Below are positions 3,829 through 23,475 of a DNA stretch of 64,000 nt, one piece after another. Position 1 is the stretch's first letter; each line of letters begins with the position of its first letter. Below the pieces are notes generated by a model, which had not been told where the DNA came from, ran no database searches, and worked only from the letters and a program-made list of their open reading frames with translations. The position numbers and the translations under genes were made by a program. Source of the stretch: an uncultured Candidatus Saccharibacteria bacterium (lineage in GTDB: Bacteria > Patescibacteriota > Saccharimonadia > Saccharimonadales > 2-12-FULL-41-12); the NCBI GenBank assembly GCA_964573095.1, contig CAZNIK010000001.1:381159-445158 (forward strand), written 5' to 3'.

Positions 3829-4443
3829 TTACGTTCCCCTGGTAATGTCCTCGATGATTGCTTTTTTATTCTCTTCTAACTCTCCGAGAATGTACTCAAG
3901 CTGATCATCGAGACTAATCTGATTACCAATAGCTGCCAAGACGTAATGGTTTACAACATCGGCCATGTTGTCATGAAAGCGCCCAAGAACCCGCTCTTTT
4001 TCAGCAGCAATTTCTTTTTGGAGCTGTTGGCTCATCATTTCCCGTTGTTCCTCAACCGCGGACTGGGTTTTTTGAATTGACTCCAGCGCCATATCCTTGG
4101 CATCACTTATCGAAGATTCATACTTCTCAAAAGCATCCTTGAGTGTTTTGGTAATTTCCTGTTTCATAAACGAGTTAATCTCAGAGGTGGTGAGACGCAT
4201 ATCTTGTTGCAAAAACATCGCGTTTTCGCCGATGATCTTTTCAAAATGAAGCCGCCCCCTATTTCGAAGCTCCTCTCGAAACTCATCGTTAAATATATGC
4301 TCGACGTCTCGCTCGGCAAGATTACTGTAGTCTGGATCTTCCTGTTTACTCGGGTTACCTACTTTGAGTGCGACCCAAATGAACGCGACAGTTGACGCCA
4401 ACAAAGAGGCGATTATTATCCCCGTTTGTAGCCACGACTCCAT
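3829..4443 (-). CDS. atpF: putative F1Fo ATP synthase b subunit
   Basis: 204 aa with one N-terminal TM helix followed by a long charged coiled coil, sitting immediately upstream of atpH. The sequence is divergent, so the call rests on position and architecture. Confidence 0.5.
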   Translation of the reverse strand: MESWLQTGIIIASLLASTVAFIWVALKVGNPSKQEDPDYSNLAERDVEHIFNDEFREELRNRGRLHFEKIIGENAMFLQQDMRLTTSEINSFMKQEITKTLKDAFEKYESSISDAKDMALESIQKTQSAVEEQREMMSQQLQKEIAAEKERVLGRFHDNMADVVNHYVLAAIGNQISLDDQLEYILGELEENKKAIIEDITRGT

Positions 4444-10997: not shown

Positions 10998-11122
10998 GAT
11001 AAAAGCCTAGTATAGCCTATTTTTGCATCTTCGCGCTTCACCTAAAGCTACTTATACACTAGACTTTTTTAATTCTTATGTTATAATATTTCTTGAGGCA
11101 TGTGACGAGTCTGCCGAAATTT

Positions 11123-11514
11123 GGGGCTGATTTTAAGCTCGACATTGGACCTTTACAAGTTAGTTTGCAAGCCGCTTGTCAGCGTCATAGACAAACTTTT
11201 TAAATGCAAACGCGTTTAAGAATGTCGCTAGTGCAGTAAAGAGCTTCTTTGCGCCTAGCTACGCATTCGCTGTAGCCTAAGAGCTCGCAGCTGCGAATGG
11301 TGTGACTTCAGATAGCACCATTTCGTATCATATTTTCTGAATAGACTTTTGCATCTGATCTGCCGCATAGTCGAAACTTTTAGATCTGCGAATCAAAGCC
11401 ATTTGGTTGTTTGTTCAGCTTTGATTCTAAGCAAGCGATAAACAACCTAAGCTTGTAGAAGACTAACTACAATAAAGCCGATGGACGCGGGGGCAGAGCC
11501 CGCCAGCTCCACCA
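11123..11514 (+). ncRNA. ssrA: tmRNA (transfer-messenger RNA); 3' end taken as the first CCA
   Basis: 5' GGGGCTGATTTTAAGCTCGAC pairs with 3' CAGCTCC-ACCA, a 7-bp acceptor stem including the G3:U identity pair. Internal tag reading frame is present. T-arm is GCGGG-GGCAGAG-CCCGC. Length of 392 nt is typical. See the finding on the duplicated 3' end. Confidence 0.85.
11206..11280 (+). other. putative tmRNA tag-peptide reading frame (ANAFKNVASAVKSFFAPSYAFAVA*)
   Basis: In-frame GCA resume codon to TAA with a hydrophobic Ala-rich C-terminus (AFAVA), as in proteolysis tags. The resume codon was chosen by eye. Confidence 0.45.
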
Positions 11515-11523
11515 ATAAAAGTA
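11496..11523 (+). repeat. 28-bp direct repeat, copy 1 (ssrA T-loop 3' part through CCA plus 9 nt)
   Basis: GAGCCCGCCAGCTCCACCAATAAAAGTA is identical to 11675..11702. Confidence 0.95.
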
Positions 11524-11552
11524 GCCGAAACACGTTCGGCTGTTTTTATTGG
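11521..11552 (+). terminator. rho-independent terminator after the first ssrA 3' end
   Basis: AGCCGAA-ACACG-TTCGGCT hairpin inside the outer stem CCAATAAAAG / tTTTTATTGG, followed by a T-run. Confidence 0.55.
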
Positions 11553-11671
11553 TAAAGTTAGTCAAGTGGCTCTGCCCGAGAGGGTGAGGATTGCCAGCGA
11601 CAATCCGAAGAATCATTGCTTGGCCGCCTTGCGCAATTGCCTATGGCAATTTTGTCGCAGGCGCAGAATAG
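11553..11671 (+). repeat. hairpin-rich module between the two ssrA 3' ends (divergent member of the tRNA-linked module family)
   Basis: Contains GGCTCTGCCC, the reverse complement of the upstream T-loop GGGCAGAGCC. Also contains GGGTGAG followed by the hairpin GGATTG-CCAGCGA-CAATCC, and the hairpin AATTGCC-TAT-GGCAATT. The motif order matches the tRNA-Glu module. Confidence 0.6.
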
Positions 11672-11702
11672 TTCGAGCCCGCCAGCTCCACCAATAAAAG
11701 TA
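11672..11702 (+). pseudogene. second (displaced or alternative) ssrA 3' end with a canonical TTCGAG T-loop, plus repeat copy 2
   Basis: TTCGAGCCCGCCAGCTCCACCA (CCA ends at 11693) followed by AATAAAAGTA. A weak terminator CCTAC-TAGCAT-GTGGG-G-TTTTTT follows at 11704..11726. Confidence 0.7.
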
Positions 11703-11795
11703 TCCTACTAGCATGTGGGGTTTTTTCTTTGTCAATAGTTGTGTGGGTTTTTGGTTATGCTTGCATGTTGTTAGTAATTGCTTAGAATTAAGCTC

Positions 11796-22812: not shown

Positions 22813-23231
22813 CAAAACAACCAACTAAAATACCCCGGGCAGAACCGGGGCGCTTTAGTTGGTGACCTCAAGGGGAATCGACTCACCTTCGGCGAGCCCG
22901 TCGCAACATCTTTCAAAACCAGTTTTGAAGAGTTGACTCCCTTGCGCAGTGCCACCGGCACTGCTCACCCGATTGGGCAATAGGGGTTCGAGTCATAAAA
23001 AAACAACCAACTAAAATACCCCGGGCAGAACCGGGGCACTTTAGTTGGTGACCTCAAGGGGAATCGACTCACCTTCGGCGAGCCCGTCGCAACATCTTTC
23101 AAAACCAGTTTTGAAGAGTTGACTCCCTTGCGCAGTGCCACCGGCACTGCTCACCCGATTGGGCAATAGGGGTTCGAGTCATAAAAAAACAACCAACTAA
23201 AATACCCCGGGCAGAACCGGGGCACTTTAGT
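22813..23231 (-). repeat. tandem array: 2 full 186-bp units plus a partial third, each holding a terminator, a structured module and the last 22 nt of tRNA-Glu
   Basis: The period is exactly 186 bp (CAACCAAC anchors at 22818, 23004 and 23190). The units differ at 1 position (22851 g vs a). The tRNA-Glu 3' fragment TCGATTCCCCTTGAGGTCACCA (minus strand) lies at 22860..22881 and 23046..23067. Terminator copies lie at 22813..22859, 22999..23045 and 23185..23231. Confidence 0.95.
23185..23231 (-). terminator. rho-independent terminator directly after tRNA-Glu CCA
   Basis: Minus strand: ACTAAAGT-GCCCCGG-TTCTGC-CCGGGG-T-ATTTTAGT followed by TGGTTGTTTTTTT. The G:U wobble is compatible with the minus-strand RNA. 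Confidence 0.7.
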
Positions 23232-23306
23232 TGGTGACCTCAAGGGGAATCGAACCCCTATTGCCGGGATGAAAACCCGGTGTCCTAACCGTTAGACGAT
23301 GAGGCC
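23232..23306 (-). tRNA. tRNA-Glu (anticodon TTC), CCA encoded
   Basis: GGCCTCA-TC-GTCT-AACGGTTA-GGAC-A-CCGGG-TTTTCAT-CCCGG-CAAT-AGGGG-TTCGATT-CCCCT-TGAGGTC-ACCA gives a full cloverleaf of 75 nt. Confidence 0.9.
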
Positions 23307-23388: not shown

Positions 23389-23475
23389 GTCACGTTCCGC
23401 GACCCCGAAACTTCGCTATTGGCAAACCAGTTGCCATCGGAAGGTTTCCTTGCAAGCTGCCACTGGCAGTTCTCA
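23389..23475. repeat. 87-nt structured core module upstream of tRNA-Glu (about 89% identical to 45572..45658)
   Basis: Hairpins on the + strand are GTCACG-TTC-CGCGAC, TGGCAA-ACCAG-TTGCCA, GGAA-GGT-TTCC and AGCTGCC-ACT-GGCAGTT, followed by TCA. See findings. Confidence 0.85.

Follow-up and report, generated by a model that had tools for sequence, protein, structure and literature searches.

A duplicated tmRNA 3′ end in a Saccharimonadales genome as the probable scar of a three-hairpin element family at tRNA genes

Known locations of group I introns include the tmRNA T-loops of Bacillota and the tRNA anticodon loops of Patescibacteria (PMC13011429). Islands and prophages of the tyrosine-integrase type occupy the 3′ part of tRNA and tmRNA genes; like the insertion described here, they enter the T-loop region, are accompanied by a 3′ segment of the gene as a direct repeat, leave the gene intact, and are present or absent between close relatives. 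PATEs derived from IS200/IS605, and REP/REPIN sequences with their RAYT, are small, non-coding, strand-specific hairpins that occur in multiple copies, have no terminal inverted repeats and cause no target-site duplication, and in these respects they would resemble the element family considered below.

A sequence-only reading of the 64-kb stretch of Saccharimonadales DNA analysed here (the window) had assigned two alternative 3′ ends to its tmRNA gene (ssrA), the distal one with a canonical T-loop, and had seen in their arrangement the attL/attR signature of an integration event. The present analysis suggests a different picture. It is quite likely that the proximal end is the working one, and that the distal end is a duplicate arising from a stereotyped scar of a three-hairpin element family, the copy of which has decayed at this site. 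The features of the locus are as follows (window positions).

11060–11087, plus strand: promoter-like site by consensus match only, roughly 35 nt upstream of ssrA: TAGACT, 16-nt spacer, TG-TATAAT
11123–11514, plus strand: tmRNA gene (ssrA); Rfam RF00023 with 80.2 bits (gathering score 47)
11487–11491 (GCGGG), 11492–11498 (loop GGCAGAG) and 11499–11503 (CCCGC), plus strand: T-arm with a non-canonical, lineage-typical loop
11496–11523, plus strand: proximal 28-bp copy within the probable working gene, comprising the 3′ part of the T-loop, the 3′ strands of T-stem and acceptor stem, ACCA and 9 further nt
11511–11553, plus strand: first terminator hairpin (arms 11511–11529 and 11535–11553), then a T-run
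11568–11577, plus strand: target junction (GGCTCTGCCC) copied in inverted orientation and without the element, the exact reverse complement of 11491–11500
11578–11584, plus strand: GAGAGGG, just ahead of the element; putative T-stem 5′ strand copy, short and degenerate, by weak analogy with canonical units
11585–11673, plus strand: probable decayed copy (89 nt) of the structured element of about 87 nt; model R1, 14.9 bits, rough E 0.027
11674–11702, plus strand: distal duplicate, made up of the tmRNA 3′ part as C-GAGCCCGCCAGCUCCACCA and 9 further nt, an exact repeat over 11675–11702, with no 5′ T-stem partner
11702–11731, plus strand: second terminator-like hairpin and T-run, beyond which homology to the relative L001 returns

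The tmRNA gene and its T-arm in the window and in relatives

The covariance-model match of RF00023 to ssrA extends over the full length of the model (positions 1–374), and the claim that a tmRNA is already complete at the proximal copy is thereby borne out. The acceptor stem (GGGGCUG/CAGCUCC) contains a G3-U pair, is tRNA-Ala-like and terminates in ACCA; the 3′ portion as a whole reads GGAC-GCGGG-GGCAGAG-CCCGC-CAGCUCC-A-CCA. The tag reading frame encodes ANAFKNVASAVKSFFAPSYAFAVA followed by a stop, and is conserved in two of the relatives introduced below (L001 and L003). Instead of the canonical T-loop (T54-Psi55-C56-R57-A58), the gene displays GGCAGAG, and the 5′ D-loop analogue is without the usual GG (UUUAAGCUCGAC). 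The missing GG and the odd T-loop may together reflect a joint loss of the D/T-loop contact. ARAGORN reports seven tRNAs and no tmRNA in the window; it calls ssrA, and reads the tag, only after the loop is swapped for TTCGAAT. The proximal T-arm scores as part of a tmRNA in Rfam, and fails to do so in ARAGORN unless repaired.

Four Saccharibacteria loci (L001–L004) with ssrA in the same position were found via the neighbouring TerC-like protein. In L001, a Ca. Saccharimonadales MAG, the neighbour protein is 96% identical and the ssrA 3′ end (GGACGCGGGGGCAGAGCCCGCCAGCUCCACCA) is identical, including GGCAGAG. The neighbour protein of L002 displays 60% identity, and the T-arm reads CCGGG-GGCAGUU-CCCGG; in L003 (54% identity) it reads UGGGG-CGCAAUU-CCCCA; L004 (58% identity) has the loop GGCAGUG. 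Changes in the T-stem among window and relatives are compensatory (GCGGG/CCCGC, CCGGG/CCCGG, UGGGG/CCCCA), and CAGCUCCACCA stays invariant while the stems covary. Since all five lineage members compared share the loop pattern S-G-C-A-R-N-N and their T-stems covary, the GCA-type loop is regarded as the lineage norm. As judged from this comparison, GGCAGAG is a lineage-level variant under selection and no defect of the window gene, and it is the ancestral state in this Saccharimonadales lineage. The sequence-only reading had taken such a loop to be unusual and had named its being the norm in related genomes, together with the absence of the distal copy elsewhere, as the finding that would speak against it; this is what the relatives display.

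These genomes would thus represent a Saccharibacteria lineage in which trans-translation proceeds with a T-loop lacking T54-Psi55, and apparently also without the D-loop GG. Because T54-Psi55 is absent from the T-loop, the ssrA of these genomes escapes standard finders of the ARAGORN kind, and indeed no tmRNA is called by ARAGORN in any of L001–L004 (4/4 missed).

The duplicated 3′ end and the 179-bp insertion

The 28-bp direct repeat (GAGCCCGCCAGCTCCACCAATAAAAGTA) pointed out by the sequence-only reading is confirmed: it is exact and occurs twice only in the window, at 11496–11523 and 11675–11702, with zero expected occurrences (100 shuffles). The distal duplicate as a whole (11674–11702) consists of the last 20 nt of the gene and 9 nt of trailer. 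Similarity beyond the 28 bp is weak and continues to 61 nt at 75%; a single 1-nt gap lengthens the repeat by two bases (CAGAGCCC at 11494 versus C-GAGCCC at 11674). A hairpin with a T-run stands 3′ of each of the two copies, at the proximal one as had been stated before; the stem of the first terminator hairpin reaches back into the gene and pairs with the ACCA end of ssrA.

Aligned with L001, the window differs at this locus by a single 179-bp indel, downstream of which homology resumes. Neither the module nor the distal copy is found at the ssrA locus of L001; the window sequence is therefore described as a strain-specific insertion of 179 bp. All of L001–L004 are without the distal copy, and each has one 3′ end (4/4). 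Between the repeats lie 151 bp (11524–11674) that contain no listed open reading frame of at least 60 aa.

The canonical TTCGA T-loop attributed to the distal end does not hold up. The 7 nt 5′ of the distal CCCGC read GTTCGAG, which is one base off register relative to TTCGANN, and no GCGGG strand able to form a T-stem lies upstream of this CCCGC. Grafting GTTCGAG into ssrA, or joining ssrA to the distal copy, still yields no ARAGORN call. Because the gapped repeat starts two bases earlier, TTCGAG is most simply explained as the final TT of the insert followed by C56–G60 of the tmRNA itself with A57 deleted. Conservation among the relatives suggests that the proximal ACCA (11514) closes ssrA and is the end in use; for the gene itself, the value of the analysis lies in deciding which tmRNA end is real.

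The inverted copy of the proximal T-loop within the insert, also reported earlier, is an exact 10-mer (11568–11577), and its position and nature match the inverted junction copies of the canonical units described below. GAGAGGG, the 7 nt ahead of the element, is a poor match to the tmRNA T-stem strand. Read-through transcripts could in principle pair 11568–11577 with the T-loop; the proximal terminator should limit such pairing.

A family of three-hairpin elements at tRNA genes

Modules of the same kind stand around tRNA-Glu and tRNA-Lys on the minus strand of the window. On the 3′ side of tRNA-Glu, two tandem units each comprise the 3′ part of the tRNA from the T-loop on, a terminator, an inverted T-arm piece and the module; on the 5′ side of tRNA-Glu and of tRNA-Lys, a 5′ tRNA fragment is followed by the module. 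Six copies of the family were found in the 64 kb of the window, four of them canonical with R1 scores of 94–98 bits, together with about 50 metagenome loci. A pattern derived from three window modules served to recruit this set, which comprises 58 loci, about 50 of them true. Among the window copies, the duplicated flanks at tRNA-Glu (22850–23250) are identical, as in a recent insertion, and a further canonical unit occupies 45530–45720 on the minus strand. GCAAGG, CUGGUUU and CGGGSUCGC were required by the recruiting pattern, so that their invariance in the alignment is given by construction; stem covariation and genomic context were not imposed.

The alignment (A1) holds 49 distinct copies of 85–90 nt, extending from 5′-UGAG to GUGAC/G-3′ and forming three hairpins: P1, which is variable in sequence; P2, which is long and bears the loop AACUGGUUU; and P3 (GUCGCG-GAA-CGUGAC). 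In this family alignment 96.4% of the cells are paired, and double changes are seen in 23 of the 32 pairs. None of 500 shuffles reaches any of five covariation measures, and partners slid out of place are paired in 27–44%. One G-U pair is invariant, and overall G-U exceeds A-C. The invariant G-U pair indicates that the folded strand is the element-carrying strand, which is tRNA-sense at all but one locus.

Insertion follows strict rules. In all 29 units with both flanks placed unambiguously on an intact gene, exactly 2 nt are replaced, within sites of the form G/NN/Y (slashes enclose the replaced nucleotides); the preceding base is always G and the following base is C or T. Position 54/55 of the T-loop, between T-stem G53 and C56, is the commonest site; others are the D-loop, the D-stem/26 hinge, the edge of the anticodon loop and the variable loop. 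Nested copies occur at three loci (L056, L061 and L074), where one element lies inside the CGGG/GU/CGC of another. A single event at tRNA-Phe (L073, L078) concerns the antisense strand. No tmRNA is among the targets of the approximately 50 metagenome copies.

The element-bearing gene copy is always partial and never the sole copy of the gene. An intact cognate tRNA lies within about 50–300 nt of almost every copy, and the flanks are fragments of that tRNA; the few copies without an intact tRNA called nearby stand at contig ends or beside tRNA fragments only. Downstream units consist of the tRNA, its terminator, an inverted junction copy, 4–12 nt of 5′ flank, the element, the 3′ part through CCA and a terminator. 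Upstream units consist of promoter and 5′ part, the element, 6–11 nt of 3′ flank, an inverted junction copy, a promoter and the intact tRNA; promoter and leader DNA are duplicated along with the 5′ fragments (L056, L071). The inverted copy is without the element and spans the insertion point. Facing the intact gene, 13 of 35 units contain an inverted junction that matches at no fewer than 11 of 14 positions; on the far side none of the 35 does (mean match 9.4 versus 7.1; shuffles 7.0).

No Rfam 15 family matches the element at any threshold tried; at permissive E values the regions around ssrA and tRNA-Lys return only tmRNA, tRNA and noise. The family-specific pattern is without a match in IMG/VR viral contigs, and BLAST of a canonical copy finds none in INPHARED phages or PLSDB plasmids. 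A hairpin-only pattern (TGCCRGTGGCANNNNGCAAGG) gave 28 matches in viral contigs, about the number expected by chance, and was dismissed because all of them are unrelated coding sequence. In tblastn searches of the window proteins against the element-bearing metagenome contigs, homologues of up to 68% identity were found on a few contigs; some of the hosts are therefore related bacteria. No protein identical to the MetRS of the window is on record. At one of the loci (L060), an open reading frame between element copies is ASCH-like in look. A full-text literature search found no description of the family, the nearest entries being group I introns (PMC13011429), and the three-hairpin element family thus appears to be undescribed.

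How does the ssrA insert compare with these copies? Its first part (11585–11611) reads UGAG-GAUUGCCAGCGACAAUC-CG-AAG and displays the 5′ domain of the family, the GCAAGG motif being present with one deletion and one substitution; hairpin P1 is GAUUGCC-AGC-GACAAUC. The R1 match (11585–11650) starts exactly at UGAG, 7 nt past the inverted junction copy. In an unfiltered R1 search of both strands of the whole 64-kb window, the insert ranks fifth, after the four canonical copies and directly above the insert downstream of tRNA-Lys (10.7 bits); its E value of about 0.03 is a rough figure, and the true one could be several times worse. The first 21 nt agree in 17 positions with the copy at 45572–45658, which 4 of 500 shuffles equal. 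Measured from UGAG up to the last base ahead of the duplicated C56, the insert is 89 nt long, inside the canonical range. P2 with its AACUGGUUU loop and P3 (GUCGCG-GAA-CGUGAC) are not found: R1 skips P2 and places P3 on an unrelated hairpin, only GUCGC and GAA being left. The layout is that of the family, with a partial copy beside an intact gene, the inverted junction on the gene side and the 3′ part through CCA thereafter, and the order of parts equals that of a canonical downstream unit, terminator last. The 2-nt rule fits (GCGGG/GG/CAGAG) only if A57 was lost distally and GAGAGGG, the 7 nt upstream, represents GCGGG in degraded form.

Based on the 5′ 25 nt, the length and the layout, we consider the ssrA insert a likely member of the family, decayed or else divergent, in agreement with the relationship to the tRNA-Glu and tRNA-Lys modules that had been proposed from the sequence; layout and 5′ domain are the same, and the match is weak. 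Since the inverted 10-mer is an exact copy of the tmRNA-specific loop, the scar would have formed on this tmRNA lineage and would not have been imported from a tRNA. A second subfamily, suggested by the CCGCCUU shared between the inserts downstream of tmRNA and tRNA-Lys, was rejected: no more examples were found in about 80 loci, and the two are not significantly alike past the hairpin.

Possible origin and comparison with known systems

Three other origins of the insert were weighed. A phage or integrative element may have entered the T-loop of ssrA, brought a 3′ end along and lost nearly all cargo, which would leave a cis-mobilisable mini-element between attL and attR. The exact 28-bp repeats of the 3′ part, flanking an insert that is missing from a close relative and leaving the gene intact, agree with this, and T-loop sublocations are known integration sites. 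The signature of an insertion accordingly stands, as the sequence-only reading had it. However, the 151 bp contain neither an integrase nor any other open reading frame, the insert begins with the 5′ domain of a small family, and this family has no matches in viral contigs, phages or plasmids. It occurs at many tRNAs and at D-, anticodon- and variable-loop sites, with target-specific and promoter-side duplications and with inverted junctions, all of which one attP cannot supply. Because one integrase and its attP would not produce such a pattern, attL/attR is doubtful here and an island remnant seems unlikely; the integration reading is right in spirit and wrong in kind. Local duplication downstream of ssrA by replication slippage or template switching, with a family likeness due to chance, would fit the low R1 score of 14.9 bits, and by simple arithmetic a 1.4-kb region should contain about one exact 10-nt inverted repeat through chance. 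Chance would then also have to account for an R1 match that opens exactly at UGAG 7 nt past the inverted junction and that is the best non-canonical one on both strands of 64 kb, for a body of 89 nt within an order of parts as in canonical downstream units, and for 5′ 21 nt resembling a copy in the same genome (4 of 500 shuffles reach the score). We hold this to be unlikely as well.

A functional role of the distal end, either as an alternative 3′ end or through removal of 179 nt from a read-through precursor, which would create a more canonical T-loop, is highly improbable. The string TTCGA does stand before the distal copy, and an intervening sequence has a precedent in the group I introns of Bacillota tmRNA T-loops (PMC13011429). 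Against this, GTTCGAG is off register and rejected by ARAGORN, no 5′ T-stem strand adjoins it, a terminator follows the proximal end, and the relatives manage with the GCA-type loop alone (GCA-type loops in 5/5 genomes, the distal copy in 0/4 relatives), so that the suggestion of a canonical or functional distal end does not survive. An intron is further contradicted by the absence of Intron_gpI from the Rfam scan at the gathering score or at E values up to 10, and by a gene that is intact upstream of the insert; canonical elements are never found in a sole gene copy, and their carrier copies are partial with the intact gene adjacent. Known group I introns are larger than 179 nt.

Returning to the decayed family copy as the preferred explanation of the insert, we hypothesize that the family is a non-autonomous mobile element that acts at the DNA level, probably on one strand. 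Presence or absence and copy number are what suggests mobility; no transposase, integrase or reverse transcriptase was linked to the family. Insertion into a single-copy essential gene would survive only when coupled to a partial duplication by which an intact gene is regained; the distal 3′ end of ssrA would be a by-product with no tmRNA role, and the element copy would have decayed after insertion. The inverted junction copy crosses the insertion point and yet is without the element, so that it would derive from an element-free strand or copy. Speculatively, this would fit entry into one DNA strand followed, ahead of the first round of replication, by repair through a hairpin or template switch. 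The duplication of promoter DNA and the one antisense insertion speak for rearrangement at the DNA level; hence a purely RNA-level insertion is disfavoured (L056 and L071 for promoter and leader, L073 and L078 for tRNA-Phe). Serine-, tyrosine- and HUH-type chemistries were set aside by reasoning only, since none of them would account for a 2-nt loss together with an inverted element-free junction.

As a tentative proposal, for which we would claim somewhat less than even chances, the element of about 87 nt may constitute a novel kind of mobile structured nucleic acid within Patescibacteria, one that invades loops and loop-stem junctions of tRNA type on one strand with a 2-nt swap, via a single-stranded DNA or an RNA/ribozyme step, and is kept through fold-back partial duplication; the ssrA scar would be the first sign of tmRNA targeting. 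If mobile, the family would exemplify a novel strategy by which selfish elements inhabit the tRNA genes of tiny genomes, which are essential and present in single copy. The tRNA-fragment pseudogenes to which the family gives rise can also confuse annotation. The value of the ssrA scar lies in the lineage-specific tmRNA T-loop and in an abundant element family that is apparently undescribed.

Compared with integrase islands, the ssrA insert differs by its lack of integrase and cargo, by the 151 bp between its repeats and by the inverted junction copy, and the family differs in that the 5′ (promoter) side is duplicated as well at other loci, targets and positions are many, and the replacement comprises exactly 2 nt. 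What group I introns (PMC13011429) have in common with the family is that both are structured RNA-like elements directed at the loops of tRNA-type genes within one phylum; in contrast to these introns, the family elements are 86–90 nt long, display no group I core in Rfam, never reside in the sole gene copy, are accompanied by duplicated gene fragments and include one antisense insertion. PATEs and REPINs differ from the family in using a fixed motif of 4–5 nt, whereas the family requires only G/NN/Y, replaces 2 nt, targets tRNA genes and leaves a fold-back scar, no HUH transposase having been identified. A MITE of the DDE type does not match either, as the ends of the family (UGAG.../...GUGAC) form no terminal inverted repeats, and the target loses 2 nt where a MITE would leave a short duplication. 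The tRNA introns at non-canonical positions that spread among tRNA genes of the archaeal Thermoproteales are similar in that numerous tRNA genes contain related short elements, in their D-, anticodon-, variable- and T-loops; however, these introns are spliced by the bulge-helix-bulge endonuclease and reside in functional genes, whereas the family described here lives in a bacterial host and in truncated carrier copies.

Loops of the Saccharimonadales tmRNAs

The tmRNAs of Saccharimonadales (window and L001–L004, four Saccharibacteria loci with ssrA beside the same TerC-like gene) lack T54-Psi55, their T-loop following the pattern S-G-C-A-R-N-N, and the D-loop GG is likewise absent (UUUAAGCUCGAC). 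The relevant segments of the window are:

11123–11145 and 11487–11503: tmRNA segments with D-loop and T-arm

ARAGORN detected none of these five tmRNAs (0/5), and their Rfam scores are low (56–80 bits).

Element copies at tRNA genes

The three-hairpin element of ~87 nt is present around tRNA-Lys and tRNA-Glu in four canonical copies (94–98 bits, range over the four) and one degenerate copy:

22882–22967, minus strand: canonical copy
23068–23153, minus strand: canonical copy
23389–23475, minus strand: canonical copy
45307–45365, minus strand: degenerate copy
45572–45658, minus strand: canonical copy

Units, consisting of an element and a partial tRNA copy, are located both upstream and downstream of tRNA-Lys, the upstream one comprising 5' tRNA fragment 1–54 and the element. 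Upstream of tRNA-Glu lies a D-loop element unit, and downstream of it two identical units in tandem.

In the near-identical tRNA-Glu genes of the window (element at 23389–23475) and of metagenome locus L057, different element subtypes occupy one and the same D-loop position, which reflects either recurrent insertion or turnover. A single partial tRNA-Glu copy holds two elements, in D-loop and T-loop, at L075 (~330–590) and L089. L060 (977–1972) has three copies of the element, including a degenerate one, next to tRNA-Ile; two of the three bracket a 144-aa ORF (1384–1818) which, judged by eye, looked putatively ASCH-like.

Terminator hairpins

At element-bearing loci, terminator stems 3' of tRNA and tmRNA genes reach into the NCCA 3' end and pair with it (ACCAAUAAAA...UUUUAUUGGU), as is also seen at many metagenome element loci. 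Those in the window are:

11511–11553: terminator hairpin with NCCA-pairing stem
23180–23245, minus strand: terminator hairpin with NCCA-pairing stem

The terminator at 47620–47690, which belongs to the element-free tRNA-Arg, does not pair with the NCCA end. ARAGORN called tRNA-Arg(tcg) on both strands, at 47676–47751 (plus) and 47690–47766 (minus); since Rfam supports the minus-strand gene only, the plus-strand call is an artefact.

Nested and antisense insertions

Elements are also nested within one another (L056 942–1100, L061 74–230, and L074): the inserted element sits in the CGGG|GU|CGC motif of its host element, a motif similar to GGGG|UU|CGA, the T-loop sequence preferred as a target. 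In the elements that serve as hosts here, the middle domain differs and the 3' hairpin contains a long insertion; hence, the family comprises subfamilies.

Partial tRNA-Phe copies at L073 (~4130–4390) and L078 (~1350–1590) bear the element on the antisense strand, where the G|NN|Y rule of 2-nt replacement is kept and the fold-back, an inverted element-free junction copy, is retained. This argues for insertion as a DNA-level rather than a tRNA-level event.
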